From IMG/VR virus record IMGVR_UViG_3300045988_135453: a DNA stretch of 64,000 nucleotides; one strand, 5' to 3'. This DNA comes from a virus. Numbering within the stretch: position 1 is the first letter of the stretch; each line of letters opens with the position of its first letter. Below, one piece after another: positions 5,001 to 59,434 of this stretch. The notes beneath the pieces were generated by a model. The model was not told the DNA's origin, did not search any database, and was given only the letters and a program-made list of their open reading frames with translations. The position numbers and the translations under genes are program-made.

Positions 5001-5792
5001 GTATGAGTTTTGCGGACCTATCTCCTGCGAGGCAAAGCACACGAAAAGCGGATTCCAGGGTGTGCCGTGGATAATCTCGCTAACATGCTGACCGTCGCGT
5101 ATCACATCAGGCAGCGTCACGCTCAGAAGGGAATAGATACGGAAGTCCTTGTTAAGCATGTCGGGCGTAAACGTACTGCCAAAGCCGAAACGAGGCAGCC
5201 CCCTGTCAAGCGTCACCTCACAGCCTAGGGCTGCAAGCTCTTGTGGAGAGAAGTCGGTCTTCGGCATAAATGAGAATGTCTCGATGGTCTGCTGTGCCTG
5301 AGTACGATAGTCCATCTTGGCAAACACCTCTGGGAAGGCACGGCGCACTTCGTCGGTATCGCCATACACATCCTTTACGAGTCTTTGGCAGATACACTGA
5401 AGACTATATCCGTGCATCGGAAGATTCATCTTGGCTGCGTACAGCTCGAGGGCTCCGTAGCCGGTCTTGCCCGTGCGGGTGCATTTCCACTTTACGGCAT
5501 CATGCTCTGCCATTCGGTTGTCATCAACGCCCACGCCCGAATACAGTCCACCTCGCTCATTTTCATAGATAATGAAGTGGGGTGTCTGCTTGACATCGGC
5601 ATCCGCGTCCTGTCCCTTCTTGCAGATAGGACAGAAACACGCGGTCTGACCCTCGATGCGCTGCTCGTTGGCAGACTTCACGAGAAGATGCAGGTCGATG
5701 TTAGCGAGACGATTTATTATCGGGTGATAGAACATGATTGCAGTCGTTGTTTTAAAAGGATAGCCGGTGATTTGCCAAACGTTTTTCGACAT
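2064..5792 (-). CDS. DNA primase-helicase
   Basis: 1242 aa. N-terminal CHC2-like zinc finger (CFCPICKK...TPHFIIY...WKCTRTGKTGYG). Walker A ATGGSGKS in the C-terminal third (SF3/D5-like). Acidic end ...IKDEENMPF. Confidence 0.8.
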   Translation of the reverse strand: MSKNVWQITGYPFKTTTAIMFYHPIINRLANIDLHLLVKSANEQRIEGQTACFCPICKKGQDADADVKQTPHFIIYENERGGLYSGVGVDDNRMAEHDAVKWKCTRTGKTGYGALELYAAKMNLPMHGYSLQCICQRLVKDVYGDTDEVRRAFPEVFAKMDYRTQAQQTIETFSFMPKTDFSPQELAALGCEVTLDRGLPRFGFGSTFTPDMLNKDFRIYSLLSVTLPDVIRDGQHVSEIIHGTPWNPLFVCFASQEIGPQNSYGCFFRPAMAGSEPIVFSTAEEHSVRKVSKWLMGDNVFVYAMDQRKSDNTAVHAAIAKYDPEEKYTEQKEIWVEREDKDGVGKGTFKQEKKKIPTAEIKARNIVFCRTPEDALSVYYAMRSLRLDKIEDQHFQDFCWYHVAFSIGRRNFWYIEHGEWKRENLDFSGVQFQKMNRFAEHVIILYPNDIVSQRDCGAICTKFSSLYYAMLPEGFRSRYCRRWQWLYGCSPRSVRDYLLAYTMNAEENFQFDHDVRLPLYSSLRGASNTEPFDIEWPRDPRSGKLKPPTCKVSPTRLWLFMTARGYYRMIDPESTDLVGQYIHLNKCFVEYIDVKSIIQAAKTLLLKYTKQAWRYSDPERRLMSDCANMVDKAFTEKSAGGLQSMVINFADAFDAKTEYFYFNNVALKITPDSIRTVSYDDINFFIPSLAKKPFDFTMRAFKTPFTITERQEYRDRLEAIDKKEKMQNEDGSLVFSTFEIGQMKADLEEWAQTYRWDVNWQGKQEKDLWPILRIVRGCSNVLWEREQEAQRNKEELTELEKAVIGAHFVNMISGIGRLCYRSDKGMMPVCPYFLEDDIPDEKQATGGSGKSIIVKLVVGSAVNVLDIDMKRMEHINDARFVLGNLLSEPFKYRVLHWEDKQKGFPMKYFYNMVTTGLTVEKKSVDQELVPLKDAPKHVITCNYPLSDDDDSTVGRFPLVSFSNRFARANPQKRKAARLMSALMKNFSDKPEEIDDTDRNQAIYICALAVQFLMRYHTFAIAPQGNVRRRQMVQKLTESIVRYFEWFFSRNEVYGVPICTDDMFNEFMRDWADASEGKSKEYSRATFKKKIYDYCENMSITCNPKHLFENESDKQRKCFKLQAWVTQEYFTGREWENDNTIEPKFIRYLQTSKHVFFFYRPGKDVIPKDYRELKRIAKQYAEQPDPLPYRDDDGNIIQLTDEEKERWENNKTRKQGRRMAPFVATNSTAASVPDIKDEENMPF

Positions 5793-7215: not shown

Positions 7216-7722
7216 TTAATCTATATTGTTTTGGTGTAGCGAGGTTTGTTCTGAAAAGACTTTTAGCAAAGGTAAAATGCCGATGCCTTCCCAGTCTTTC
7301 CATTTGTCAGACGTAAAACGGGTGCATGTCGTCCGCTCGCTCATTCCGTTCTCTTTCATGAAAGAAGCGAATTTCTTGCAAAGGCCTTGACCCTGCTCCT
7401 TGAGCTTTGCATAAAAACGCCCGTTATCTTCGTCCGCCAGCGAAAGAGGGAAATCCTCGGGGGCGTTCTGCTCAGGATAATAAAAATCTTCAATTTTCCG
7501 CTTCACCTCTGGCGACGCTAAAAATTGCCTTTTACATTCCTTAACACCTATCAATTCCCAAGCTGAAAAACCTTTTTGAAAGAACCTCTTATAAAAGGTC
7601 GCAATTGAAAAGCCCTTGGGCATCAAAAAAAGCAACAGTGCTTTTTTCTCTTCTGCTGACACGTCTTTTATGTCAATAGGTGTCCGAGGACCCGTTATTT
7701 TTCTAAAAATTTCCTTGGTCAT
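7216..7722 (-). CDS. hypothetical protein
   Basis: 168-aa ORF, first gene of the minus-strand replication operon, divergent from the HTH gene. Confidence 0.7.
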   Translation of the reverse strand: MTKEIFRKITGPRTPIDIKDVSAEEKKALLLFLMPKGFSIATFYKRFFQKGFSAWELIGVKECKRQFLASPEVKRKIEDFYYPEQNAPEDFPLSLADEDNGRFYAKLKEQGQGLCKKFASFMKENGMSERTTCTRFTSDKWKDWEGIGILPLLKVFSEQTSLHQNNID

Positions 7723-7850
7723 TCGATTTTTAATTCTTAAATTTGATGCAAAGATATATTTTTAATATCGTTGTTGCAAATTTTAAAATCGTTTTAACAA
7801 TTTCTTTAACTTATATTTACACTATAATCAATTTTTATAATATTTACGTT

Positions 7851-8555
7851 ATGAAATATCAGTACAATTTTGGGTTTTTGAAACAGTGGTTGGCTGCTAA
7901 CCCGCAGCTTCAAGTCAAGACTATACAGGCCGCGCTGGGTTCAAAATCAAGCAACAGTTGGAAAGGCTGGCTTAACGGCGAGGGAACTTTACCTATAATC
8001 AGTCTTCTTCGCCTGTGCAATGCGTTTCAAATTCCACTGTCTGCCTTCTTCCGCGATGCCGACTCCAATGGCGAGGCTGCCGTTGTGCCCGGCACACCGA
8101 CAATTGATGATGAACTTGAACCAAAGGGCGGCTTTGACCGTGCGCCATCTGAGCGTCTGCCGGGTGAAAAGAGTTACCTTGACCCGCTTGATGTCGAGGT
8201 CTGTGCCACCACTATTCCAGGGAGAACGGTTAGACAAGACAAAAAAGAAAATGCAGTCGAAGACGAGCAGGAGGCATCTGATAACAAAGATGTAGCAGAC
8301 ACGAAAAATGATGATGCCGCGTTGCCTGCAAATCTGGGCAACATGAACAGCGAGAACCTTAAAAGTCTGATTAAACTACAGATGCAGCATGCCGCAATAG
8401 AGTCGCGCTATCTTGACAACCAAAATCGGCTCCTCGACATCATAGCCGCACAGCAGAACCAGATCGCTAATCTCACTCGACAATTAAACAATTACGAGTT
8501 GTTGAAAGCAAGAGAATATGGCAGCGACATGGTATCAGACGAACTGAACAAATAA
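7851..8555 (+). CDS. HTH (XRE/CI-like) transcriptional regulator with C-terminal coiled coil
   Basis: Start taken at MKYQYNFGFLKQW... (ATG 7851) inside the 7743..8555 ORF. HTH-like segment TIQAALGSKSSNSWKGWLNGEG. One of very few plus-strand genes. Followed by a hairpin. Confidence 0.7.
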   Translation: MKYQYNFGFLKQWLAANPQLQVKTIQAALGSKSSNSWKGWLNGEGTLPIISLLRLCNAFQIPLSAFFRDADSNGEAAVVPGTPTIDDELEPKGGFDRAPSERLPGEKSYLDPLDVEVCATTIPGRTVRQDKKENAVEDEQEASDNKDVADTKNDDAALPANLGNMNSENLKSLIKLQMQHAAIESRYLDNQNRLLDIIAAQQNQIANLTRQLNNYELLKAREYGSDMVSDELNK

Positions 8556-8562
8556 TCAAAAA

Positions 8563-8597
8563 AGCAGCCACCTGTTCATCACGAATAAGTGGCTGCT
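8563..8597. terminator. hairpin between convergent genes
   Basis: agcagccac (8563..8571) pairs with gtggctgct (8589..8597). A-run before and TTT after. Confidence 0.6.
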
Positions 8598-8663
8598 TTC
8601 GTATAACAAAGGGAACATGTGCTATACTTTAGTGTAACTTAACTTCATACGAAAAACAAAAAA

Positions 8664-9194
8664 TCATATTACATTACGTTCGTTGATGGCTGCCATCTTG
8701 CGACGATAAAACTCTTTCTCTTCTATCTTCGTTAGCGTCATGTCGGCACTTACATACGGCACGTCGGCATACCAGTAGCCTTGATACAGAAACACGATAG
8801 GCGTGCTGTTGCCGAAGGTCATAGGCAATGGCAGGTTGTCTTTCGTGCGATTCGGTTGAAGGTTGAGTATGCCGAACAGCTCTGCCTCACTCACGACTGG
8901 CAGATTATTCATTTCTTTTTCTAAGTCGGTGCCTTCGATGGGGAAGAAGAACACTCGTCCTTCAGGCGACACCGCCCTGTCCCATCCGTCACGTTCGGTA
9001 GTGTCGGCAAACTCCACGGCTCCCACTCCACCTGCCATGCCTACGGGCGACTCGTAATAGTGCTCTGCTCCATGTTTCTTGGCCCAATCGAGAGCCTTCT
9101 GTTCGGCTTCTTGACAACGGTGCATGAATTTTTGCAACTCTTCGCCAACATCTGATATAGCCAAAATTTTGTAATAATAATGCAATTTCTTCAT
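8664..9194 (-). CDS. hypothetical protein
   Basis: 176-aa ORF from the ORF track. Confidence 0.7.
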   Translation of the reverse strand: MKKLHYYYKILAISDVGEELQKFMHRCQEAEQKALDWAKKHGAEHYYESPVGMAGGVGAVEFADTTERDGWDRAVSPEGRVFFFPIEGTDLEKEMNNLPVVSEAELFGILNLQPNRTKDNLPLPMTFGNSTPIVFLYQGYWYADVPYVSADMTLTKIEEKEFYRRKMAAINERNVI

Positions 9195-9237
9195 TTCTAT
9201 ATTTTTAATTAGTAATTATTAATTAGTAATTCAAACA

Positions 9238-9531
9238 TCATCGTAGCGCAGCGTAGATGACCGGTTCTCCGCATTCATCGTCCTTCATCTTGAAGCCCTT
9301 CGCAGCCAACTCCTGAAGATACAAAGCCAAAGGATCGCCCAGCGGACAAACTACGGCCTTAAAATACGAGCGAAGCTGATAGTCGGTAAACACGTCGCAG
9401 TCCTCACGCCAATGGTCCAACGGCTTGTATTTTTCACAGAAGGCTTCTATCTTGGCAGGAATAACAAAGTCTTGCAAGGTAACTTCCGGCTGCTCGGTGT
9501 TTTCTATTATGTCTTGTTTCTTTCTACTCAT
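9238..9531 (-). CDS. hypothetical protein
   Basis: 97-aa ORF from the ORF track. Confidence 0.65.
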   Translation of the reverse strand: MSRKKQDIIENTEQPEVTLQDFVIPAKIEAFCEKYKPLDHWREDCDVFTDYQLRSYFKAVVCPLGDPLALYLQELAAKGFKMKDDECGEPVIYAALR

Positions 9532-30199: not shown

Positions 30200-30760
30200 C
30201 TAAACCGTCATCGTCAGCTTCGCAGGGTAGTCCTTAGTGTAGTCGTAGGTCAGCACCTCCTCAACGCTCGTCAGCTCGCCCACAGCCTTCTTGTGAGCCG
30301 CCGTAACGTTAAAGCACTCCAGGGCATACATCTCAAGTGCCGAGAGCAGCTGAATGGCCATGTCACAGCCCACCTCCAGCTTTGTGTTCCCGAGCCACAG
30401 CGTCGTCGTAGCCTGTCCCATAGCCTTCGCGATGGTCGTTGAGTTCATCAGCCCCACGCGCGTGGCCTTGTCGAGCCACACCACCGCGCCGTTGAGCATA
30501 AAGCCGTTCACGGCAGACGAGGTGTCATAGCCCGCGATCTGCTTCAGGACCTCCTCACGCGCCGCAGCCACCGGGTCATGCTGCTTCGTCAGGTCAAGCC
30601 ATGTCGCGTCATAGACATAGACTGTAACCTCCGTCTTCTCACCGTCGGGAGACTCCTGCTCCCGTTTTTCCTCACTCTCGCCCAGCAGCACCAACGCCTG
30701 TCTGCCGCCCTTGCAAATGGTCAGCGTTTGCTGACGCTCCATAAATTCTAATCTCATCAT
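30200..30760 (-). CDS. hypothetical protein downstream of the DGR RT
   Basis: 186-aa ORF. Not Avd-like (too long and acidic). Confidence 0.65.
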   Translation of the reverse strand: MMRLEFMERQQTLTICKGGRQALVLLGESEEKREQESPDGEKTEVTVYVYDATWLDLTKQHDPVAAAREEVLKQIAGYDTSSAVNGFMLNGAVVWLDKATRVGLMNSTTIAKAMGQATTTLWLGNTKLEVGCDMAIQLLSALEMYALECFNVTAAHKKAVGELTSVEEVLTYDYTKDYPAKLTMTV

Positions 30761-30786
30761 GCAAAAAATAATAAATAATAAATTAT

Positions 30787-32160
30787 CTAAATTCCCAGCT
30801 CAGCACATATCAGGTCACACGCCTCCTGCTTCGTGGTGTGATATTCGTCGAAGAACACCTTTGTGCTGTCATGTTTCACATGCAGCCGCTGGTGAAGCTC
30901 TGCCGTGCCGTTGACAACGAGACGGAAAAATTCAACTATCTCCTCGCTGCCCTCCGTCGAGTGACACAGCCGCTTCTGGCCATTCAACAGATGAATGTAT
31001 GTCAACCTTACCATGTAGCCCTCCTTACCCTCCTTGGCTTTCGCCTCCGACGGCTCGATGTTAAACTCCACAGGCACCACCACGCTGCCGTCTGCCAGGT
31101 CACGCAGCTTCACCTTGTCGCCTCTCTGTGTCGTCACGGTCATGCCGTGCTTGTTTACAAGTTTCATAAAGTTGTTCTCTATCATGTGTCTCAACCTCAC
31201 ACTGTCCGTCTTTAGCAGCATGCCACGGTAGCCTGCATAGTGTTTCCAGCCCGCCGACCTACCTCTTATGGCGCGTCGCCGCATCTCTGCACGCACATGC
31301 ACAAAGCTCTGCTTGTAGTCATACTTGCAGAAACGGAAGCCGTCGCCCACGCGACGCATCTGGTAATCGCCCTTCACTTTCAGCGAGAAGCGCCCCGCAT
31401 AGAAAGACATGAGAAAGCTCATCGCCTCTCTCACCTCCTTCTTCTCGCCACACATCAGTCTGTTGTCGCCAAAGCCAAACAGATCGACCTTGTAGCGGCG
31501 CAACACCTCGCGGTCGGCGATGACAAGCACAAACATGGCAAGCAGCTGACTGAGGCATCCCCCGATGGGCAGATATTCCATGTGTATGAACAGCCGCGCA
31601 AGCAGCCAGCGCGTGTATGGACACACCACCACCTTGAACAGCTCACCCAGCACGATGCGCGTCTGCAACGTCTCGTAGAAATGGCGAATGTCGGTCTGAC
31701 CCACCCACATGTCGGGATGACCTTTCACCCAGTGGCGTATCTTGTTCACCATGCAGTACCGTCGGTCGTTGCTCAGCAGCGAACGGCCCTTGATGCCCGA
31801 GTAGATGTTGCGGACCATCATGCCACGAAGCTTCTTCTCTATCATGATGAGCACCAGCGTCTGGACAATGCGGTCATACATCGCCGATACGTCGGCGTTC
31901 CTGTCCTTGTCGCCCTTGCCCTTCTTGTGTATGACCTTGCGCTTCGGCGGCTTCGGCGTGTAGGTCATGTCGCGCAGCTCGCGCTCAATCCTGTCACACA
32001 CCTTCTGTTTCTGTGCCGTCCACGCTTCAATCACGCTGTCGGGCGCATCCGTCCGGTCCATCGTGCGGTCAAACGCCTTCTCAATAATTGTTCTGTTCGC
32101 AAAGAAACGTCTGAGGCTTTTCAGTTTCCTCTTCTTGTTGGCTGACTTCAACTCTATCAT
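30787..32160 (-). CDS. DGR-type reverse transcriptase (conservative start; the ORF is open up to 32622)
   Basis: RT motifs TDIRHFYETL, LPIGGCLSQLLAMFVL (the I/LGxxxSQ hallmark of DGR RTs) and FGFGDNRLM at the YxDD position. The TR lies immediately upstream. Confidence 0.8.
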   Translation of the reverse strand: MIELKSANKKRKLKSLRRFFANRTIIEKAFDRTMDRTDAPDSVIEAWTAQKQKVCDRIERELRDMTYTPKPPKRKVIHKKGKGDKDRNADVSAMYDRIVQTLVLIMIEKKLRGMMVRNIYSGIKGRSLLSNDRRYCMVNKIRHWVKGHPDMWVGQTDIRHFYETLQTRIVLGELFKVVVCPYTRWLLARLFIHMEYLPIGGCLSQLLAMFVLVIADREVLRRYKVDLFGFGDNRLMCGEKKEVREAMSFLMSFYAGRFSLKVKGDYQMRRVGDGFRFCKYDYKQSFVHVRAEMRRRAIRGRSAGWKHYAGYRGMLLKTDSVRLRHMIENNFMKLVNKHGMTVTTQRGDKVKLRDLADGSVVVPVEFNIEPSEAKAKEGKEGYMVRLTYIHLLNGQKRLCHSTEGSEEIVEFFRLVVNGTAELHQRLHVKHDSTKVFFDEYHTTKQEACDLICAELGI

Positions 32161-32334
32161 AACGTCAGCGTCCTCAACGGTAGCCGACACGTTGCTTTCC
32201 GCGCTCCCGCAGCTGTCCCAGAAGGGCAGCTCCGAGCCGTAGTCGCATCGTCCATGCCCACCAGTGGCGACATGGCCATCTTTAGTCTTTGAGCTTGCTG
32301 CTCCCGATGTGAGAGGTCTCCCTTTTTCCGTGTT

Positions 32335-32447
32335 GACAGCGAACGCCCCAGCGTAGTTGTTGTTGCCATTGCCAGCGTGATTGTTACAGTTCGCAGTACG
32401 AGCCGAGACCTGGCCATTGTTCGCATTGCAACCAACCACAGAGCCGT
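32335..32447 (-). repeat. DGR template repeat (TR)
   Basis: 113 nt matching the VR at 101 of 113 positions. AAY-rich on the minus strand (NANNGQVSARTANCNNHAGNGNNNY). Confidence 0.85.
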
Positions 32448-32684
32448 TCTTCTCACCTTCGGTCTTGCATGTGTCGTCCGCGTGTGCGTTGTCGTGACTG
32501 GGATAGGTCGCGCACACACCTCTCGCCACATGCTCACACACCATGCCGACGTACCCGCGGCCCTTGCCGCGAGGCGCAGAGGCTGTCGCCTCCCCATGCA
32601 CGTTGTGGTTTTGTTTCTTCATGTTAAAACTCTTTTTTGATGTCGTCCTTCCGCGTCTTCAGCTTGAAAATCGGGGCGGGGGGG

Positions 32685-32716
32685 GGAGCGGCTACACTAA
32701 GACGTTTCGCCGCTCC
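32685..32716 (-). other. 8-bp GC hairpin next to a 9-nt homopolymer, between VR and TR
   Basis: ggagcggc (32685..32692) pairs with gccgctcc (32709..32716). A G9 run at 32678..32686 overlaps the stem by 2 nt (C9 on the coding strand). Confidence 0.5.
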
Positions 32717-32827
32717 GCTGGGCTTAAAGTCATGGCCTTCTTGCTTGGGCTCTCGCCGCAGCTTGCTAAGACGCAACTTGCGATTGAGACTTTTGTTAAT
32801 TATTATTGATTATTACTCTCGATTAAA

Positions 32828-35800
32828 TTATTGATTAAAAAGGACAGCGAACGCCCCAGCGTAGATGAAGTAGCCATTGCCAGCGAGATTGAAACATTTC
32901 GCAGAACGAGCCGAGACCTGGCCATCGTCCGCACTGCAACCAACCACAGAGCCGTGTACCTGAGACGTGTTCACTCCTCCATTATTTGACGGATATAACC
33001 ACAAATAGGCACATTCGTGCGTGTGGAGCGAAGAACCTACCGTCTTATAGCAGAAATACGACATGTTATAATCGGAAGACTTTATAAAACTCTCTTGCAA
33101 GTCCGTCGCGCCATAATCCTTCTTCTTGTTGAGTCCAACGAGCATTGGAGGCTTGGTGTCGTAAGCACATTGATAGGCATTCTGGTTGAATACCGTCAGC
33201 GGCTGCACATCTTCCATGCTCTCCGTGCAACGGTAGTCTACATGCGTGGCTCCATCAATGTTATGTATTGTGTAATAGGCGTAGCTCATCTGACGAAACT
33301 GCCCGACGTAAGGCAAGGTGAAACCGCGATACACGGGTATGCTTACCTTCAGAATGGCAATAGCCCCGTCAAATGACACCTTCTTGTCGGTGCTCTGACA
33401 ACCGTCGGCAATCTCTGTCTTGACATATCGGTTCACCACAGCGGTCATAACACCGTCCTTCATTCCTTCACAGCGAGGAACATCGCGCACGACAAAATAG
33501 AATTTTAGCATCTCCATGCCCTCGCCTGTGTCGAGGTTCACGCTGCCGTCGCTTGCACACACGGCGTTGCCGTTCTCGTCATAATAGAAAATGTTGGCTT
33601 TGTTGCCGATCTTGTCGATAAATCCTGCCTTGGCGATGGCATCAAGTATGCGTTGGCCTTCAAGCAGCTGCACAGGATTGTATAAGGCTGTTGACAAGCC
33701 GTTCGCAAGCCGAATGTTCTTGTTCTTGCTTACGACATAGGCCTGTGAACTTAAATAATGGTTATAGTAGGTCTCGCCTGTAGCAGCAATGATCTTCCAG
33801 CCGCTCACACCACTTATCGCATCGTCGTTAAACTGGCTCGCGCTTATGTTTTGCGCTGTCACGCCCGAGCCAAACATCTTCACGTCTGTGTGGTCAACCG
33901 AGCCTATCTCCGCAAACATGGTGGTCAGAAGAGCCTCGTAGGTGCCATGGTGCCAGCCCATGTAAGGACGGGCGGTCAACGGATCTGTATTCTTGTTCTG
34001 TGCGTTCTGTATGCTTGACACAGCACTTATGTTTGAAGCGTGTCCCGCCCCTCTGTTTATGTAAGATGCTTTCAGCACAGACGTGTCGGCCGTGCCGTAC
34101 ATTCCGTTCACCGCCGTGTTGTATATGCAATGTGCCTGAGACCTTGTGTCGCCCTCGATCTTCGCGTTCACGGTCTCGCAAGGTGTCATGCCGAACGCAG
34201 GCATCTTTTTTGATTCCACACCGTACCATTTTGCCGCCGTCTTGCCGATAGCCAGACAGTTCATCTCGCGTCCGTCAACAACCTTCGTCGCGTTGATCAC
34301 GTTGGCGTTGCGGTTTATGAGCATTACGTCGCCGTCAGTGCCGTCAATCTTCACCTCCTCGCCGTTCTCGTCGAGGGTCAGACGGCCAGGGGCCATGACG
34401 TGTGTCACCACACCGTTCTTCACTGTCGCCAGCTTCCACTCGGCTCCCACCTCGCGCATCAACTGCTTGTCTCCAAACGTCATCTCCGCGTCAGGACTCG
34501 CGTCACCGTTCATCCTCACCATGCCCACATAGGGGTTGGTGTCAACAAATGTCGCCATCTTCTCCTTCAGCTCAACGGCGAGGCTTCGTGTCTCATTCTC
34601 CTTCTGACTCAGGTTGCCGAGCTGGGTGGAGATAGAAGCGAACACACCGTCACGCAGCACCTTCATCGTCAGGTCTGCCGTGCCTACCTTGTAGCTCACG
34701 GCGACGGTCATGGAGGCGTTGCCCTGGAAATGGCTCATGAAGCGGCAATAGCCGTCTTCGGGCAGCTCGGCTTCAGCGTTAAGGCGCACAAGCGGGGCGT
34801 AGGAACCTACGGTGGTCTTATATTGATAAGGCAGCTCTGTCACCACAGCTCCGCTCTCGTCGGTAATGGTCACGCTCTTCGTGCCGTCCTCGCCGTCGGC
34901 ATAGGCATAGCTGTAGGTATGTGTCTTGCCGAGGTAGGTGGCGGTTGCGCTCGCTGTTGTTCCGTCCTCGTTGTAGCTGTAGGTGTAGTCGATGCTTCGT
35001 GTCTCCACTCTGCTTATCTTCTCTGCAAAGATGCACACCGTGCCGTCCACGACGTTGGGCTTGAACAGATATTCGTTGCCCTTCTCTGCCGTAAACTCGG
35101 CGATGGTCCAACCTGTCTTTGCCACCTTCACACCGTCGGCGCTTATAGCCACGTTCTGTTCCGAGGGAGTGAGCACAATGTCGGGACGCGCCGTGTAATG
35201 GCCCAGGCTCTCCTTTACACGCTCCATCGAGGCAGCAAGCTCTTTCACCTTCTCTCCCTCGCCTATGTTTATAGAGGCTTCATGTCCCTCTCTGTCGGTT
35301 ATCGTCAGTGTGCCGTCTTCGGCAAGCGTGGCGTTCACGTTGTTCGCGGCTGTTGCGCTCTGTTCTGCCTTAGACGCTGCTGTCTGTGCCGATTCCGCAG
35401 CGTCTAAGGCGGCCTTCGTGGCGGTCTTCACCTCGTCGAGGGCCTTCGTGGTCTTCTCCGCACGGCCCTGTTCTGCCTTGTCGCGCAGCTTCTCGGCTGT
35501 AACGCGCCGTGCTTCGGCATCGGCACGAAGTTCCTCGGCACTCTTGCGCTCTGTCTCGTCTGTGCTCCGTGTGCTCTCTGCCTCCGTGCGCTGTGTCTCA
35601 GCTGTCGCGCGACCCTGCTCCGCCTCGCTTCGCACCATCTCGGCCATTATGCGCTTCTTCTCAGCAGCTGTTGCCGTGGCATTGAACTCGTTGAAGGCCG
35701 TGGCGGTCTTCTCCAACGCCGCGAGGTTGTCATCCATGAGCTTATTCATAGCCTCACCATGCTCGGCTGCGGTCTGTGCGCGTGCGGCAGCTGACATTGC

Positions 35801-36184
35801 GCTCTCCGCGCTTCCATTGGCGTTGCTCGTCGCCTCCGTCACCTTGCCGAGGGCGTTGTTCAGCTTGTCGCTCGCTGTGTTGGCTCTCGTTGCCGACTGT
35901 TCGGCTGCAAGGGCCTTGGTGTTGGCGTTGTCCGCAGCTGTCGTGGCGGTCTGTGCGGCAGTCCGCGCGTCCTCGGCTGCCGTGTAAGCAGCCTGTCCGT
36001 CAACAAGGATGCCCCACCATTCATCTTCACCCGCAGGCTCATGTCCCGTGTTTCCCTCCTGCTTGCTCCAGTAGGTGGTGTTCTTATACGTTACCACATG
36101 CAGCCTGCCGTAAGTGACATCGGGCGAGTATGCGCCCTTTGGCGCAAAGCCTACTCTTCCTAAATTAATTTTCTTTGTTACCAT
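32828..36184 (-). CDS. tail-fibre-like protein, DGR target
   Basis: 1118 aa. Long Ala-rich coiled coil at aa ~65-290. The VR encodes the last ~40 aa (GSVVGCSADDGQVSARSAKCFNLAGNGYFIYAGAFAV). Confidence 0.85.
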   Translation of the reverse strand: MVTKKINLGRVGFAPKGAYSPDVTYGRLHVVTYKNTTYWSKQEGNTGHEPAGEDEWWGILVDGQAAYTAAEDARTAAQTATTAADNANTKALAAEQSATRANTASDKLNNALGKVTEATSNANGSAESAMSAAARAQTAAEHGEAMNKLMDDNLAALEKTATAFNEFNATATAAEKKRIMAEMVRSEAEQGRATAETQRTEAESTRSTDETERKSAEELRADAEARRVTAEKLRDKAEQGRAEKTTKALDEVKTATKAALDAAESAQTAASKAEQSATAANNVNATLAEDGTLTITDREGHEASINIGEGEKVKELAASMERVKESLGHYTARPDIVLTPSEQNVAISADGVKVAKTGWTIAEFTAEKGNEYLFKPNVVDGTVCIFAEKISRVETRSIDYTYSYNEDGTTASATATYLGKTHTYSYAYADGEDGTKSVTITDESGAVVTELPYQYKTTVGSYAPLVRLNAEAELPEDGYCRFMSHFQGNASMTVAVSYKVGTADLTMKVLRDGVFASISTQLGNLSQKENETRSLAVELKEKMATFVDTNPYVGMVRMNGDASPDAEMTFGDKQLMREVGAEWKLATVKNGVVTHVMAPGRLTLDENGEEVKIDGTDGDVMLINRNANVINATKVVDGREMNCLAIGKTAAKWYGVESKKMPAFGMTPCETVNAKIEGDTRSQAHCIYNTAVNGMYGTADTSVLKASYINRGAGHASNISAVSSIQNAQNKNTDPLTARPYMGWHHGTYEALLTTMFAEIGSVDHTDVKMFGSGVTAQNISASQFNDDAISGVSGWKIIAATGETYYNHYLSSQAYVVSKNKNIRLANGLSTALYNPVQLLEGQRILDAIAKAGFIDKIGNKANIFYYDENGNAVCASDGSVNLDTGEGMEMLKFYFVVRDVPRCEGMKDGVMTAVVNRYVKTEIADGCQSTDKKVSFDGAIAILKVSIPVYRGFTLPYVGQFRQMSYAYYTIHNIDGATHVDYRCTESMEDVQPLTVFNQNAYQCAYDTKPPMLVGLNKKKDYGATDLQESFIKSSDYNMSYFCYKTVGSSLHTHECAYLWLYPSNNGGVNTSQVHGSVVGCSADDGQVSARSAKCFNLAGNGYFIYAGAFAVLFNQ
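32843..32955 (-). repeat. DGR variable repeat (VR)
   Basis: Differs from the TR at 12 positions. Eleven correspond to TR adenines on the minus strand. Confidence 0.85.
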
Positions 36185-36196
36185 ATCGCGATATAA

Positions 36197-36985
36197 TTAA
36201 TAGTTCGTGTTAATGACGAGCTCACCGTCTTCAGTCAACTCATATCTTTTTTCGTTCCCGTCCGTGATTTTCACGTTCAGCTCCATCTCGTCGGTGTTAA
36301 CCTCGAAGGTGGGGAAGTCGACCGTGCCGCGGGAAAACTTGTCGGTCTTATCGTAAGCACCTTTTTCTATGTTCCACACCATCCAGTAGCCGTCTTCCGA
36401 TATGATGTTGGGGTGCTCCGCCGTGCTCTTTGCCCTGTCTGCCTGTGTGTTCGCGTTCTCGGCAGCTGTCGTGGCTGCGCCAATGGCTGTGTCGGCACGC
36501 TGCTCGATGGCGCCCATCTTGGTCTCCACGCCCTTCAAGGCCTCCTTGGTGTCGGCAATTGTCTCTTCAGCATCCTTTATCAGGTTGCCCAGCTCCACCG
36601 CGGGAGCCAGTACCACAAGGGCTGTGTCCATCTCCACGCTGTCCTCGCCCTCCTGCGGCTCAAACACCGTGTCACCGGCAGCGTTGTTGTCAACAATCTG
36701 AAACTGCTCATACTCGTTAGATCTCCAATCGTTGCCGAACAACTTTCCTTTTACCTCCAAGGCGTAGGTTCCCACAGCCACCTTGTCGCCCTCCACACGC
36801 GCAAGCAGCACGTTGTCGGCAGAAACGTCAATGGTATAGCCGAGAGCCACACGTCTGTATTGGTTCACGACGTTCACCTTGATGTCCGTACACCCGGGCA
36901 GAGGAAACGCCACCTTCGCGCCGTCAACAATCTTCATGACGGGCACACGCAACGTAAAGTCGTTGCCCCTAACAATCTTCTTCAT
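36197..36985 (-). CDS. fibre- or tail-associated structural protein
   Basis: 262 aa with an Ala/Thr-rich coiled segment similar to that of the DGR target. Function assigned by context only. Confidence 0.6.
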   Translation of the reverse strand: MKKIVRGNDFTLRVPVMKIVDGAKVAFPLPGCTDIKVNVVNQYRRVALGYTIDVSADNVLLARVEGDKVAVGTYALEVKGKLFGNDWRSNEYEQFQIVDNNAAGDTVFEPQEGEDSVEMDTALVVLAPAVELGNLIKDAEETIADTKEALKGVETKMGAIEQRADTAIGAATTAAENANTQADRAKSTAEHPNIISEDGYWMVWNIEKGAYDKTDKFSRGTVDFPTFEVNTDEMELNVKITDGNEKRYELTEDGELVINTNY

Positions 36986-37000
36986 AAACTCATAACAACA

Positions 37001-37057
37001 AAATAATAAATAATAAATAATAAATAATAAATAATAAATAATAAATAATTAAATAAT
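37001..37057. repeat. heptamer tandem repeat (AAATAAT)x7 plus one more copy after a T
   Basis: Seven perfect copies at 37001..37049. Fills the spacer between the 37061 stop and the 36985 start. Confidence 0.9.
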
Positions 37058-37060
37058 CAT

Positions 37061-38881
37061 CTAAGAAATTGCCCCCTTGCCAATGACCTCTCCGTTGAGC
37101 TTCAGCTGGCATCCTCTCGCGCCGCTCGGCTTCGCAATCACCGATCCGTCGCTACCTGTCGTAGGCATGGTTTCGCCGATCGTGTTTATCTCAAACTCGG
37201 CCTGCATCAGCTTACCGGGCATTAGCGTCATGACCTTGCCTTGGCCCACCTCTGTCATGGGGAAGCTGCTGTCCTTGAAACTCGCTGTGAGCGTCTGCGT
37301 GAAGCCGTCGATGATGAGCTGCAACTTGCTCTGATAAATCTTCGCGCTCTCAGACCCAAAGTTCTGAAGCGTCACAGAACCACTATAGCTGATCCAGTAG
37401 TTTTTCTTTGATACAAGATCTATCGTCGAGACGCTATATTTCACGCCACAAGCCGTCATCTGCACACCCACTTTGCCCGATGCCTGTCCGCCGCTCGGTC
37501 CGATGGCGTAACACACCACACCTGCCGCGTTTGTAAACTGCAAATAGGGCAAACCGTCTATAAGACCAAAGAAGGCAGTAGCACCGCTCAGTCCGCTCAG
37601 GGCCGTGAACGCGCCATCCTTGATGATAGCTGTCAGGCTACCGTCCTTCGACACACTCTTCAACGAACGCGCTTCAAGGTTGCCGTCTTCGTCCACGCCG
37701 AAACTCTTCTCGCCGTGATTGTTCCTTAGCGTAAACTTGTCAGCCGTCATGTCGATCGTCTTGTTCTTAATGTCGATGCCCGTGGCCTCTAACGCACGCG
37801 ATGACACATCGGCATAAGAGGCAGGGGTCCAGCCATTATAGGTGCCGCTCTCGTCAAGCATCAGCTTGCAGCAGCGGCCTCTTCCGTTTTTTCTCACGGC
37901 AAGCTCCACCCTCACGTTGTTGCAGCTCGCTTCTGTATCGCCTGTCTTGAAGGTAGCCTTAAACATCTTCCAATCATGTGTTTCGTTCGCTGTCGCAAGG
38001 TTCAGATAGCAGAAGTTTGTGTCTTGGCCGATGCTGAGATACATGACATCATCCAGATCGCCATCGGCTCTCGCCCAAACGCTCGCCGTATAGTAGGTTT
38101 TGGGTTTCAGAACCACACCTTTCCATACGAGGCCGCTCCATGTCGTATCTGTCGCTCCCTTTTGGTTTATCACCATCGCTCCCGTACCTTCAAGACCACC
38201 TAAAGGCAGTATGGTGCAAGGGAACGTGTCGGGACGTTGCTGTGTCACGTCCGTCTCTCTGTTAAACGCCGTGCCCGGCAACACATTCAACCGTCCAACC
38301 GTCTCCTGTGCCACCTTTGCAGATATGCTCTTTGTCGTCTGCTCGATCTTGGATGTATATTTCGTCAGCACGTTGGGAGCCTCGCTCTGCAAGTCCTGCT
38401 GAAACTCGCCAAACTCTCTCTTCAGACCATTCACCAAGGTCTCGACACCGCCCCACACCGTGCTCATCTCCACGCTTACGCCGATGGTGTGACTAAGCGT
38501 TGTACCTCCCACTCTGATATTCACCGTCACAGAACCCGAGGTGAGAGGGTAGATCTCGCCGTCTGCCGTGGTGTAGGTAGACATGCGTGTGACCTTAATT
38601 AGGCCAGAGCCTCCAACGTTTGGCCCCGTCGCTGTACAGTTCTCTGTGCTCGCCACCGTCACCCTGCATGTCGCCGTAACGTCAAGATTACCTTTCAGCA
38701 CCTTCACCGTAGACGTGTTGTTCTTCGTCGTGTCGGCAGCAAACACCGTGTCCGACACCTTCCTTATGCCGAGCGTAATGACCGACGGCGTAGCGCAGAC
38801 GGTGTAACCATTAGCACCGTCTGCACCGTCCACGCCGTCACGAATCACGGCAATAGTGATATATCCTTTTCCTATTACCAT
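37061..38881 (-). CDS. tail or fibre structural protein
   Basis: 606 aa. N-terminus ITIAVIRDGVDGADGANG is typical of phage fibre and host-specificity proteins. Function assigned by context. Confidence 0.6.
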   Translation of the reverse strand: MVIGKGYITIAVIRDGVDGADGANGYTVCATPSVITLGIRKVSDTVFAADTTKNNTSTVKVLKGNLDVTATCRVTVASTENCTATGPNVGGSGLIKVTRMSTYTTADGEIYPLTSGSVTVNIRVGGTTLSHTIGVSVEMSTVWGGVETLVNGLKREFGEFQQDLQSEAPNVLTKYTSKIEQTTKSISAKVAQETVGRLNVLPGTAFNRETDVTQQRPDTFPCTILPLGGLEGTGAMVINQKGATDTTWSGLVWKGVVLKPKTYYTASVWARADGDLDDVMYLSIGQDTNFCYLNLATANETHDWKMFKATFKTGDTEASCNNVRVELAVRKNGRGRCCKLMLDESGTYNGWTPASYADVSSRALEATGIDIKNKTIDMTADKFTLRNNHGEKSFGVDEDGNLEARSLKSVSKDGSLTAIIKDGAFTALSGLSGATAFFGLIDGLPYLQFTNAAGVVCYAIGPSGGQASGKVGVQMTACGVKYSVSTIDLVSKKNYWISYSGSVTLQNFGSESAKIYQSKLQLIIDGFTQTLTASFKDSSFPMTEVGQGKVMTLMPGKLMQAEFEINTIGETMPTTGSDGSVIAKPSGARGCQLKLNGEVIGKGAIS

Positions 38882-38900: not shown

Positions 38901-39944
38901 CTATTTTGTGCTCACCTCACAGGTGAACGTTGCTCTAACCGATACGTCCGCGCTGCTCACCGTCACATAGGGCAGCTTGCTCGTGTGTACAGGACTGCTT
39001 GTGCCGTTCCAGTTTGTAGCCACGCCGTTGGCGTTATATTTCGTCCATTTGTAAGTGAACTTTGTCGTGTGCGATGTGTCGGCCTTCACCGTCGCGCCGT
39101 CCTCCACAATGTTGCCGTCGCGCCACACGCGGGCATACAGCTCCGTGTTCTGTGCTCCGTTCACGATCTTGTCGCCCGTGAGCGAAAACACCTCCACGAC
39201 GTAAGGGTCTGAGGCATCGAAGAAGGTCACAATCTGATAGGCTGTGTCCTTGCCGTCAGTTACGGTACACTTGAAGGTCTGGAAGTTGAGCACATCGTCT
39301 GCTACCACGTTCAGTGTGCTCACGCCGTTGGCCGTGCTCACGCCTGCCGAGATGTCGGTCCATGTTCCTTCGCTTATGTTGAGCTTTGCCCATTTCATGC
39401 TCGTCACCACCGTGTCCTGTACATTGCCTCTGAAGAACTTTGCCACGGCTCTAAGGGTCTTGCTCGCGTTAGACGAGTCAAACGTGTTGCCGTCGGGAGT
39501 CTCTATCTGCACTATCTGCAAGGCACCTCCACTCTTCGCCATGCTGATAGTCTTGTAGCCCATACATTTTGTAGTGGCACCCGTCTGGGGGTCTGTATAG
39601 GTGCAAGACCACTCTATCTGCTTGTTCGGGCTGTCCTTGGCTATGTTCGCGGATATGTTCAGCTGCCAGCTCTTGCCGCTCACGGGAGTGGCCGCCACGC
39701 CGTCCACCTTCCACGACCAGCCTGTGCATGCCGACGTGGGGGCCTGGTCGTCAGAGCTGCCCGTCACATACACCTTGGCCGTTATCACGTTGGGCGCACT
39801 TGCCGAGTAGCTGGGCGTGTAGGTGTTGGTGTCGGGGGTGTAAATCTGGGTGTCGCCGAGCGATGCCTGTGTGAAACACTGTACGGCCTTGCCGTCATTC
39901 AAGTCAACGATGGTGATTTGACCATTTGCTAAAACTTTTGCCAT
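38901..39944 (-). CDS. tail structural protein with Ig-like repeats
   Basis: 347 aa. N-terminus QITIVDLNDG. Beta-rich repeated segments. Function assigned by context. Confidence 0.6.
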   Translation of the reverse strand: MAKVLANGQITIVDLNDGKAVQCFTQASLGDTQIYTPDTNTYTPSYSASAPNVITAKVYVTGSSDDQAPTSACTGWSWKVDGVAATPVSGKSWQLNISANIAKDSPNKQIEWSCTYTDPQTGATTKCMGYKTISMAKSGGALQIVQIETPDGNTFDSSNASKTLRAVAKFFRGNVQDTVVTSMKWAKLNISEGTWTDISAGVSTANGVSTLNVVADDVLNFQTFKCTVTDGKDTAYQIVTFFDASDPYVVEVFSLTGDKIVNGAQNTELYARVWRDGNIVEDGATVKADTSHTTKFTYKWTKYNANGVATNWNGTSSPVHTSKLPYVTVSSADVSVRATFTCEVSTK

Positions 39945-57927: not shown

Positions 57928-58119
57928 TCATAATTCTACTGCTACAAAGAATGCGTCGCCGCAATCGATGCTTGACATGATGGTTATTGCTATGCCGTGA
58001 AAAGCTCCGTTTAAGCGTCCTGTATTGAACATCGAGGCAGGGCAGGTGAGCAACCTACCACCCATAATCATATCAGCTATGATGCGGATTGTACGGTCGG
58101 GTGGGTTGTCAGTTCGCAT
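57928..58119 (-). CDS. hypothetical small protein
   Basis: Start moved to MRTDNPPDR. Overlaps the MTase stop by 11 nt. Confidence 0.4.
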   Translation of the reverse strand: MRTDNPPDRTIRIIADMIMGGRLLTCPASMFNTGRLNGAFHGIAITIMSSIDCGDAFFVAVEL

Positions 58120-59434
58120 CCTTTTGTCTCTCCAAGTTCCACTTATACATTTTATAGAAGCCACGCCAATATTCCACGTCCAGTTTCTTTGGGTTCTCCT
58201 TGAACTTTTCGTAGAGACGGGCGATGGCTGGGCGATGATAGCTCAGTTCTTTCTCGTTCCACTCAATGCCCTTGTCCCATCCGTCGTGACGCTCCATGAA
58301 TATCTGAAGCACGGTCTTGAGGAACATTGCCGCCTCGTGTGTCGGTGGCAGGTCGAATTGAAGGAATAAGGCATTGTCAGAGTCGTTTGCCTTGAGGAAC
58401 TTGCTCACGGCATCGTCCTTGAGGAAATAGCGGTCGGACACTTCCTCTTCGAGCACATCTTCCAGTCGGGTAAGCAGCTCGACGGGCTCGGGAAACTGAT
58501 AGTCGAAGGCTACGTCACGGCGCATGGAGAGGCAGAACACACGGTCGCGGTTTTGCGGCACACCGTAGTTCTTGGCGTTGAGTCGCGCCCAACGGCTCAC
58601 ATAGCCGAGCGACGAGAGTTTGTCGAGCCACTTCTGAAAGTCGGGCATGAACTTTTGGCTTACCAGTGCCGCCACGTTCTCCTGCAAGAGATACTTCGGG
58701 CGAAGCACCTCCACGGCATCCGCCACACGCCAAAGCAGTGCGCTTCGGGTGTCGCTGCCCTCCTGCAAACCCATCTGCTTGCCCGCCTGACTGATGTCCT
58801 GACAGGGCGAGGAATAGGTGAAGAGGTCCACTTCGCGGCCTTGGAGCGAGTCTTTCACCTCGTGCCAATCAATCTTGGTGATGTCGCCCAGGGCGCAGTC
58901 GGCAAACTGTGGGAAGACAAGGTTGTGCATCTGACAGGCATATTTGTCAATGTCGCTCCATCCCTTGCACGTCCATCTGAAGTCGGGATGCCACTGCTTC
59001 AGCACGTCGGCTGCCATGAGCTGCGAGTCGTAGCCGGAAAACGTGGTGAGGAATATCTTTTCCTCGTTCTTGTCGGCGGTGGGCGGCAGGGCGGACAACG
59101 TGTCTTCAAGGTCGTCGAAGAGCGAGAGTTGTTCGCCTGGGCGTGGCTTGGGGAGTGCAGGGTAGAAAAGCTGCTCGTAGATGTGGGCCAACACGTCCAC
59201 CACGATGCTGTTTCCGGCTTGCTTGTACTGCTGTGAGGCAGATATAGCCATGTCTTCGGGTTTACCCTTGCCCTTCCAGTCGGGCAGACGTTCGGCTGCT
59301 TGAGCATTGCTGCTCTGCATCGTGCCGATTACGTTGTCGCGAACGCCCATCAAGCGAAAACACTCCTTGGGTGTGAGCTTGCGGATGGCATAGCTCTTGA
59401 TGGTGCGGTCGGTGAAATTGAGTTTTGTGATCAT
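58109..59434 (-). CDS. DNA (cytosine-5) methyltransferase with circularly permuted motif order
   Basis: Motif order along the protein: IX (RKLTPKECFRLMG), X (YKQAGNSIVVDVL), I (FSGYDS), IV (SSPCQDIS), VI (QENV), VIII (QNRDRVF). Confidence 0.8.
   Translation of the reverse strand: MITKLNFTDRTIKSYAIRKLTPKECFRLMGVRDNVIGTMQSSNAQAAERLPDWKGKGKPEDMAISASQQYKQAGNSIVVDVLAHIYEQLFYPALPKPRPGEQLSLFDDLEDTLSALPPTADKNEEKIFLTTFSGYDSQLMAADVLKQWHPDFRWTCKGWSDIDKYACQMHNLVFPQFADCALGDITKIDWHEVKDSLQGREVDLFTYSSPCQDISQAGKQMGLQEGSDTRSALLWRVADAVEVLRPKYLLQENVAALVSQKFMPDFQKWLDKLSSLGYVSRWARLNAKNYGVPQNRDRVFCLSMRRDVAFDYQFPEPVELLTRLEDVLEEEVSDRYFLKDDAVSKFLKANDSDNALFLQFDLPPTHEAAMFLKTVLQIFMERHDGWDKGIEWNEKELSYHRPAIARLYEKFKENPKKLDVEYWRGFYKMYKWNLERQKDAN

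Follow-up and report, generated by a model that had tools for sequence, protein, structure and literature searches.

Organization of the locus

A 64,000-nt stretch of the IMG/VR virus record IMGVR_UViG_3300045988_135453 (hereafter the window) carries, at positions 30,787 to 36,184, a cassette of two genes and a pair of repeats that we interpret as a diversity-generating retroelement (DGR). All of its parts are read on the minus strand. The first gene (32828-36184) encodes a fibre-like protein of 1118 aa, the putative target, whose N-terminal part is an Ala-rich coiled coil and whose C-terminal tip varies, and the second (30787-32622) encodes a reverse transcriptase (RT) of 611 aa. A variable repeat (VR, 32843-32955) closes the target gene, and the corresponding template repeat (TR, 32335-32447) is located inside the open reading frame (ORF) of the RT. 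As a whole, the evidence points, with a probability of roughly 80%, to an active DGR of a Prevotella/Bacteroidales phage that works without Avd and diversifies the C-terminal tip of a tail-fibre-like protein. An initial annotation, made from the window sequence only, had already proposed a DGR at this site, and this interpretation is upheld by the adenine bias of the repeats, the profile and fold matches of the RT, and the variation among relatives.

The TR and VR align without gaps over 113 nt (89% identity; family D1 in a repeat search of the window) and are read in the same frame, with the TR starting 175 nt into the RT ORF. A recount on the minus strand returned the same numbers as the initial annotation: 12 mismatches, 11 of them at the 25 adenines of the TR (8 A>T, 3 A>G) and a single other one, a C>A change at position 59 that turns AAC into AAA. 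By the hypergeometric distribution, 11 or more of 12 mismatches would fall on adenines with a probability of 8.0e-8. The codon changes are non-synonymous throughout. Each of the 10 changed codons has a TR adenine at position 1 or 2; the earlier description of the variable codons as almost all AAY applies to 7 of them.

The VR covers the last 37 full codons before a final LFNQ and the stop of the target, so that its end lies four codons from the stop of the 1118-aa ORF, at the extreme C-terminus as annotated. The final 18 nt of both repeats, GCTGGGGCGTTCGCTGTC (32843-32860 in the VR), form a GC-rich block that contains neither an adenine nor a mismatch, again as first described, and in the aligned loci the homology between TR and VR stops exactly after GCTGTC. 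By analogy with the initiation of mutagenic homing (IMH) site of BPP-1, this block is a candidate IMH-like homing boundary. No second VR-like site or remote second target was found in the 64-kb window, where the next best site matches 43 of the 88 non-adenine positions.

Adenine bias and recent diversification in related phages

Searches of metagenomic protein collections returned 347 RT homologues at E<=1e-5, nearly all of them 570-645 aa long. From these relatives, 31 distinct family loci were gathered for comparison, comprising IMG/VR contigs, ENA and Logan metagenome contigs, and metagenome-assembled genomes (MAGs) of Prevotella sp. UBA1104 and a Bacteroidaceae member; some of the loci are close relatives, and counts over them are therefore not counts of independent events. 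Summed over the 31 family loci, 421 of 439 TR/VR mismatches (95.9%) fall on adenines, and the bias seen in the window thus extends to 30 further loci of the RT family. In every locus with enough upstream sequence, the TR lies in the 5' part of the RT ORF, and the gene before it ends in the VR, 400-520 nt upstream.

The direction of transfer can be read from two close relatives, L001 and L002, whose RTs are 99% and 93% identical to that of the window. Their TRs differ from the window TR at the non-adenine positions 32, 33, 36, and 38, and their own VRs carry the same changes; information therefore moves from TR to VR. Compared with the window VR, 22 of 113 VR positions are changed in L001 and 25 of 113 in L002, yet over the 1.5 kb upstream of the VR the identity to the window is 96.6% and 94.5%, respectively.

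Variation was assessed in assembled relatives rather than in read pile-ups, with the window and most loci being partial genomes. When seven close target homologues are compared with the window, 88% of the comparisons show a difference at VR positions whose TR codon has an adenine in its first or second place; the share is 15% at other VR positions and 14% outside the VR. The variation is thus concentrated opposite TR adenines, where the initial annotation had expected it, and near-identical phages of this family have diversified their VRs recently.

Two relatives show additional arrangements. The most divergent family member, L029 (36% RT identity, on a 279-kb contig), has 20 of 22 TR/VR mismatches at adenines, and two VR copies (3068-3183 and 5563-5678) match its one TR equally well, and therefore two targets are present. 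L005 carries a second, canonical DGR (7466-9399) with a YCDD RT, a TR at 7791-7898, a VR at 7466-7573, and 26 of 26 mismatches at adenines. In-frame TAG codons occur in its canonical-DGR RT and in several of the genes around it, suggesting that amber is reassigned in this phage; they are absent from its FGDN-type RT (see below) and from the DUF4376 gene.

The reverse transcriptase has a predicted DGR-type fold and a DGR-type motif 4

The RT gene product can be divided into a leader of about 150 aa that contains the TR, an RT domain at aa ~150-490, and a C-terminal domain at aa ~500-611. The catalytic domain (fingers, palm, and thumb; 31153-32175) was modelled by AlphaFold2 (AF2) with pLDDT values mostly between 80 and 95. 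Within it lie motif A (TDIRHFY, 31675-31695), motif 4 (IGGCLSQ, 31546-31566, aa 353-359), and motif C (FGDN, 31462-31473, aa 384-387, encoded by TTT GGC GAC AAC).

The ORF matches phrog_1423, 'Reverse transcriptase' (E=1.5e-31). A profile built from 25 family members finds the Bordetella DGR RT (bRT; 8ub7_A) as its best PDB match (E=5.6e-7), and the same chain is the best Foldseek match of the AF2 model (E=4e-13, TM 0.85 on the target, rmsd 2.7 Å). We also built a comparison profile from 20 canonical DGR-type RTs, which scored the window ORF at 117 bits (E=3e-35) and gave 167-397 bits for g29 of Yersinia phage fEV-1, the second RT of L005, and the protein P0177, all of which are accompanied by adenine-biased TR/VR pairs. 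With this profile no other ORF of the 64-kb window scored, and no further RT-like ORF was found there.

In the HMM alignment, IGGCLSQ aligns to IGSLTSQ of bRT, which locates the DGR-type motif that the initial annotation had named, and FGDN aligns to the bRT YMDD; FGDN also aligns to YADD of the group II RT 6me0. The I, G, S, and Q of motif 4 are invariant in 25 homologues, with SP replacing SQ in some subclades of the family, and the Asp of motif A and the first Asp of motif C are invariant in the 25 aligned homologues. The RT domain has a pN/pS of 0.18 at a pS of 0.58. Both the predicted fold and motif 4 of the RT are of the DGR type. A neighbouring RT lineage (P0156 and P0159; L036:360-1829) has FCDD as motif C and SG in place of SQ in motif 4.

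The earlier expectation that the RT would resemble DGR-RT profiles was borne out by the profile and fold searches, whereas single-sequence searches rank group II RTs first. More specifically, a single-sequence PDB search lists a group II maturase at the top (6me0, E=1.4e-7) and lacks bRT; among NCBIfam models, the group II RT family TIGR04416 gives 52 bits (E=4e-14) and Drt3a 24.7 bits (E=1e-5); and Pfam RVT_1 reaches 15 bits (E=0.021) against a gathering score of 29.6. The group II and Drt3a matches speak for a locus that is no DGR at all and instead holds a group II intron, retron, or defence RT beside a duplicated gene fragment. To this explanation we assign next to no probability: both NCBIfam scores are far under their cut-offs (300 and 200 bits; the comparison with defence RTs did not extend to the PADLOC library), an Rfam scan at gathering scores found 0 matches in the window to a group II intron, a retron, or any other RNA, the profile and fold searches place bRT first, the neighbouring genes are tail and lysis genes, and adenine-specific TR/VR pairs stand alongside the RT in all 31 loci examined.

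Asparagine at the second position of the catalytic pair

The most unusual feature of the RT is the asparagine in motif C. FGDN was found in all 25 aligned homologues, in all 29 loci, and in 18 of the 19 family representatives (50% clustering) that hold the motif, the exception having YGDD, and it persists over RT identities from 36% to 99%. The substitution is also not confined to this family. Of the 120 nearest representatives in which motif C is present, xxDN occurs in 26, eight of them outside the FGDN family (P0169, P0172, P0177, P0179, P0186, P0270, P0275, and P0157, with the motifs YADN, FADN, YNDN, YCDN, YMDN, and FTDN). For most of these eight, the closest relatives include YxDD or FxDD proteins, which suggests several independent Asp-to-Asn origins. 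One of them, the YADN RT P0177 (L035:902-2870), adjoins a TR/VR pair in which 16 of 16 mismatches are at adenines.

GDN occupies the equivalent site in the polymerases of non-segmented negative-strand RNA viruses, and a Ty1 RT in which the last YXDD aspartate was mutated to Asn reportedly retains polymerase activity. On the strength of these precedents, an active FGDN enzyme is plausible. It is probably itself the mutagenic polymerase of the element. We file the FGDN element with the DGRs because YxDD is a conserved feature of the RT class and not part of the DGR definition. No description of an Asp-to-Asn variant of a DGR RT was found in a literature search that was incomplete, and surveys such as that of Roux et al. 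(2021) may hold such loci unremarked; searches with the motif strings (FGDN, YADN, and others) returned noise only.

The asparagine could also mean that the DGR has decayed, with a dead FGDN enzyme and with TR/VR differences that are historical or were written in trans by another RT. The second Asp of YxDD is usually held to be catalytic and is invariant in 155 DGR RTs (PMC3521204), and L005 does contain a second DGR with a YCDD RT. Yet the RT is under strong purifying selection (pN/pS 0.18), FGDN has been kept over the whole identity range given above together with the invariant Asp of motif A and first Asp of motif C, and the VRs differ between phages whose RTs are 99% identical, with TR changes mirrored in the VRs. 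Furthermore, the window has no other RT-like ORF, the second TR of L005 is unrelated to its first VR, and the YADN lineage also has an adenine-biased pair (16 of 16). A decayed element is thus very improbable, and we retain the interpretation of an active DGR.

The template repeat is embedded in a conserved reading frame

The initial annotation described the layout as canonical. The order target-VR, TR, RT on one strand was indeed seen; the TR, however, lies inside the RT ORF and not before it, and no avd was found. In 29 of 29 loci, the RT frame is free of stops from a conserved ATG through the TR and a spacer of about 200 nt into the RT. This ATG is located 119-255 nt upstream of the TR, and the stop-free span opens only 6-90 nt before it. 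Over the leader (420-610 nt), all 27 distinct sequences are free of stops in the RT frame, whereas the other two frames average 7.6 and 11.0 stops. In five loci from three lineages, the stretch from the TR to the RT domain contains no in-frame ATG. All aligned homologues carry the peptide encoded by the TR, GSVVGCNANN...YAGAFAV, in their RT ORF.

The leader has a pS of 0.23-0.28, compared with 0.58 in the RT domain and 0.67 in the C-terminal domain, and its pN/pS is 0.48 before the TR, 0.34 in the TR, and 0.81 in the spacer after it. AF2 gives pLDDT values below 50 for aa 1-149, and the leader is predicted to be disordered. Judging from the conserved frame, the leader is probably translated, and it is constrained mainly as nucleic acid.

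The same data bear on the alternative that the N-terminal 150 codons remain untranslated, the RT starting internally, possibly at a non-ATG codon, and the open frame being a by-product of template-RNA conservation. Little protein-level constraint is indicated by the pN/pS of 0.81 in the spacer and 0.48 before the TR, a disordered leader is predicted by the model, and the TR would be stop-free in this frame anyway because it mirrors target codons. Against this stand the absence of stops in all 27 sequences (compared with 7.6 and 11.0), which includes the poorly conserved part before the TR, the opening of the stop-free span just 6-90 nt ahead of an ATG that is conserved in position, and the five loci that offer no in-frame ATG between TR and RT domain. 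We consider an untranslated leader unlikely, though quite conceivable, and proceed with a translated one.

In P0156, of the neighbouring FCDD lineage, a TR-like Asn-rich peptide is found within the N-terminus, with the VR off the contig; the TR-in-ORF arrangement therefore extends beyond the FGDN family.

Conserved RNA hairpins follow the template repeat

Directly 3' of the TR, RNAalifold and a covariance model (R1) define an RNA element (32234-32342) with two hairpins, H1 (GAGCAGCAAGCTC, 32291-32303) and H2 (CCATGTCGCCACTGGTGGGCATGG, 32252-32275). In 21 distinct sequences, 99.7% of the H1/H2 cells are in standard pairs and 11 of 14 pairs show compensatory changes. None of 500 shuffles reached the observed values, and sliding the partners by 1-3 columns lowered pairing to 22-37%. 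The R1 model finds exactly one copy, on the RT strand and directly after the TR, in 30 of the 31 family loci; no match was obtained in L029, the most divergent locus (36% identity), or in the fEV-1, YADN, and FCDD loci. The loop of H1 and the bases that follow contain invariant adenines, and we speculate that one of them might prime cDNA synthesis in the way that an adenosine of the BPP-1 spacer RNA does. The incomplete literature search found no description of this two-hairpin element of the FGDN family. RNAalifold also proposed long-range pairing of the TR 5' end with the GCTACC block, which was dropped as almost all of the pairs are invariant.

A further GC-rich stem-loop (32685-32716) occupies the intergenic region between the target stop and the RT start. 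All 13 loci examined have a hairpin of -17 to -40 kcal/mol at this site, the stems being different and most loops carrying a TTAG-like motif; the hairpins are reported per locus, since the VR-to-TR spacer is too gappy for covariation counts. The stem-loop could be a terminator, a 5' element of the template RNA, or a DNA cruciform.

The cassette lacks avd and extends the RT by a C-terminal domain

In none of 29 loci is there an avd-sized ORF between the VR and the RT, the window cassette has no free ORF longer than 50 aa, and the Avd (four-helix-bundle) family is missing from the Pfam matches of 67 window ORFs. Avd is present in about 74% of DGRs and is not universal. DGRs without Avd are an accepted class (Wu et al. 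2018, PMC5758913).

The RT ends in a beta-rich domain of about 110 aa (30787-31125, aa ~500-611) that was modelled with pLDDT values of 84-90 and has a pN/pS of 0.19 at a pS of 0.67. Pfam returned no match for this domain even at E<=10, and the family profile also matches the C-terminal region of more distant RTs of the Avd-less type such as P0182. C-terminal extensions occur in about 20% of DGR RTs, with no function assigned to them by Wu et al. (PMC5758913). The domain is a candidate substitute for Avd or for an RNA-binding function and, by analogy with BPP-1, the hairpins and the C-terminal domain may fill the roles of spacer RNA and Avd.

It is also conceivable that the element is a textbook DGR of the BPP-1 type, which obtains Avd from elsewhere in the phage or host genome and whose RT starts downstream of an intergenic TR. 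Such an element would have the same classical order of target-VR, TR, and RT on one strand, the RT fold is nearest to bRT, which works in complex with Avd, and the window is part of a genome of 75-83 kb. We nevertheless regard this as improbable, given that neither the VR-to-RT interval of the 29 loci nor the Pfam matches of the 67 window ORFs revealed an avd, that Wu et al. (PMC5758913) report no remote avd for Avd-less DGRs, and that the frame through the TR stays open, with five loci lacking a downstream ATG. An Avd-less element remains the preferred reading.

The target and its genomic neighbourhood

The target is presumably a receptor-binding fibre. PHROG links it weakly to virion structural and tail proteins, Pfam and NCBIfam returned no family for it, and its C-terminal 340 aa have only 17 homologues. 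It lies within a block of tail genes that includes a phrog_3267 tail protein (38901-39944) and a CBM_4_9 protein (37061-38881); in gene order, the tail genes are followed by the target and, further on, by a tail-fibre-type DUF4376 gene, a membrane protein, and a lysozyme.

The AF2 model of the target has a mean pLDDT of 66.6 and falls below 50 over the VR. Against the PDB, Foldseek found no match below E=0.2. Among viral models (BFVD), its matches are a homologue, a 'receptor binding complex' fragment with E=2.7e-7, and, as the only structural hint at the expected fold, a weak one to a protein that is labelled TvpA-like (E=8.5e-4, TM 0.41). By eye, the pattern of the VR peptide loosely resembles the VRs of C-type lectins. 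The C-terminal position of the variable tip is as the initial annotation had it, and the C-type-lectin fold expected there is neither confirmed nor excluded by a model of low pLDDT that has no PDB match.

Directly downstream of the RT lies the small DUF4376/tail-fibre-type gene (30200-30760, minus strand), which matches PF14301 (E=4.8e-6) and the tail fibre family phrog_1807. L003-L006 likewise have a gene of about 190-200 aa after the RT, and in L005 and L006 it gives a faint PF14301 match. We treat this gene as genomic context and as a candidate member of the DGR at most.

A 35-nt stretch of the target (35913-35947) is 86% identical to one in the upstream 262-aa gene (36441-36475). Both genes match phrog_20680, and together with the sequence likeness this suggests an N-terminal fibre or anchor module common to them. 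An AT-rich run of AATAA/AAATAAT repeats is found at 36987-37056, between the genes at 36197-36985 and 37061-38881, and a shorter, similar stretch (30752-30782) lies directly downstream of the RT. These may be promoter or spacer sequences of the Bacteroidota type; a scan for sigma-70 promoters and terminators was uninformative in the case of a Bacteroidota phage.

Elsewhere, the window encodes an RtcB tRNA ligase, DNA methyltransferases (C5 and N6/N4-type by Pfam), a ParA/MinD-like ATPase, a GNAT acetyltransferase, and a 3'-5' exoribonuclease-like protein, a set that includes the minus-strand ORFs 58109-59434 and 62593-63768. It looks like a counter-defence and maintenance set. No integrase was found among the Pfam matches of the window ORFs scanned.

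Proposed mechanism

We propose that a single transcript, starting upstream of the RT start codon, would serve as RT mRNA and template RNA in one. A ribosome initiating at the conserved ATG at 32622 would cross the TR and the two hairpins, so that the RT would carry a disordered leader of about 150 aa at its N-terminus. The RT, with its FGDN motif and extra C-terminal domain, would then bind the structured RNA 3' of the TR and copy the TR into cDNA, misincorporating opposite adenines. Finally, the cDNA would replace the VR, with the common adenine-free block setting the boundary.

A number of points weigh against an active, Avd-less DGR with a translated leader. One of the 12 mismatches in the window, the C>A change, falls off the TR adenines. 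The RT stays under the RVT_1 cut-off (15 against 29.6 bits), and group II intron RTs rank first in single-sequence searches. Both YxDD aspartates were 100% conserved in the 155 DGRs of a 2012 survey (PMC3521204), and the activity of the FGDN enzyme is therefore putative. The VR-bearing domain was modelled with low confidence (pLDDT below 50 in the VR) and has no PDB match, so that a C-type lectin fold is conjectural. The argument for a translated leader is frame conservation, and an internal non-ATG start is conceivable. The Avd negative covers the 64-kb window rather than a whole genome, so that Avd or a second RT could be encoded elsewhere.

A more far-reaching proposal, which we offer tentatively and consider rather doubtful, is that the family practises a distinct, self-contained form of retrohoming. 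Catalysis would proceed with one Asp (FGDN), the RT would be translated through its own template and, while nascent, assemble in cis on that RNA, the hairpins and the C-terminal domain would replace spacer RNA and Avd, and the Asp-to-Asn exchange would be recurrent (FGDN, YADN/FADN, YNDN, YCDN, YMDN). If Asp-to-Asn exchanges do recur in active DGR RTs, the second carboxylate would be dispensable or tunable for this enzyme class. An Asn in place of a catalytic Asp, combined with signs of ongoing mutagenesis, bears on metal binding and selective infidelity of DGR RTs and on the engineering of mutagenesis tools. Avd-independent retrohoming was flagged as an open question by Wu et al. 2018 (PMC5758913), and the clade provides a compact case of it, with one gene, one RNA, covarying hairpins, and an extra RT domain, that is open to reconstitution and mutation. 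Surveys based on Pfam RVT_1, whose threshold the RT does not reach, may under-count such elements.

Comparison with known systems

DGRs are common in gut phages, and the element as first described is therefore ordinary. A megablast search of 30200-36184 against GenBank phages gave no match, and tblastn identified Yersinia phage fEV-1 as the only GenBank phage with a match to the RT (25% identity).

The reference DGR of BPP-1 (mtd-avd-TR-brt; 8ub7 to 8ubf) shares with the window the adenine-specific TR-to-VR transfer into the C-terminus of a phage protein of the receptor-binding type, the RT fold (TM 0.85), the motif 4 pattern (I/L)GxxxSQ, an adenine-free GC-rich block at the 3' end of the repeats, and a structured RNA 3' of the TR, the place of the spacer (Sp) in BPP-1. 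In contrast to BPP-1, the window has no Avd, FGDN instead of YMDD, an RT ORF of 611 aa compared with the 328-aa bRT chain, a leader encoded by the TR region with the TR inside the RT ORF, and an extra C-terminal domain. The sequence likeness of the RT to bRT becomes visible by profile only, and a lectin fold like that of Mtd is conjectural here.

Group II intron RTs have the fingers-palm-thumb fold in common with the window RT and provide its best single-sequence matches, but the window differs from them in lacking intron RNA, in having SQ rather than the usual SP in motif 4, and in its TR/VR pair. The Quimbyviridae DGR (PMC8008677) was considered as a counterpart and set aside, as its frameshifted RT and two targets are unlike the window.

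The overlap of the TR with an RT ORF is not a new idea, since DiGReF 'group 3' (Schillinger et al. 2012, PMC3521204) lists cassettes in which the TR overlaps the annotated RT ORF. The window resembles these in that the overlap is at the 5' end of the RT ORF. DiGReF group 3 is an annotation class only; in the present family, the whole TR lies within the ORF, 119-255 nt from its start, and maintenance of the frame is shown.

In layout, the window is closest to the cassettes of Architecture A/lineage 3 (PMC5758913), the crAssphage LMMB (PMC7290462), and fEV-1, which likewise have the order target-VR, TR, RT, no avd, and a tail-fibre target. The fEV-1 cassette (g27-g29) has 25 of 25 TR/VR mismatches at adenines; its RT is about 320 aa long, carries YCDD, and is preceded by the TR, whereas the window RT has 611 aa and FGDN and contains the TR. 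Canonical DGR-type neighbours show IGNYxSQ and Y[CAM]DD, and the FGDN family forms a separate cluster with an RNA element of its own. The DGR is thus best filed with the Avd-less target-TR-RT cassettes of Architecture A/lineage 3 on the basis of its layout. Avd-less layouts and TR overlap with the RT ORF have been published before, and the evidence of frame maintenance is new. As far as could be checked, the element differs from the DGRs compared here in FGDN, in a family-specific RNA element, in an embedded TR whose frame is maintained, and in a conserved C-terminal domain.

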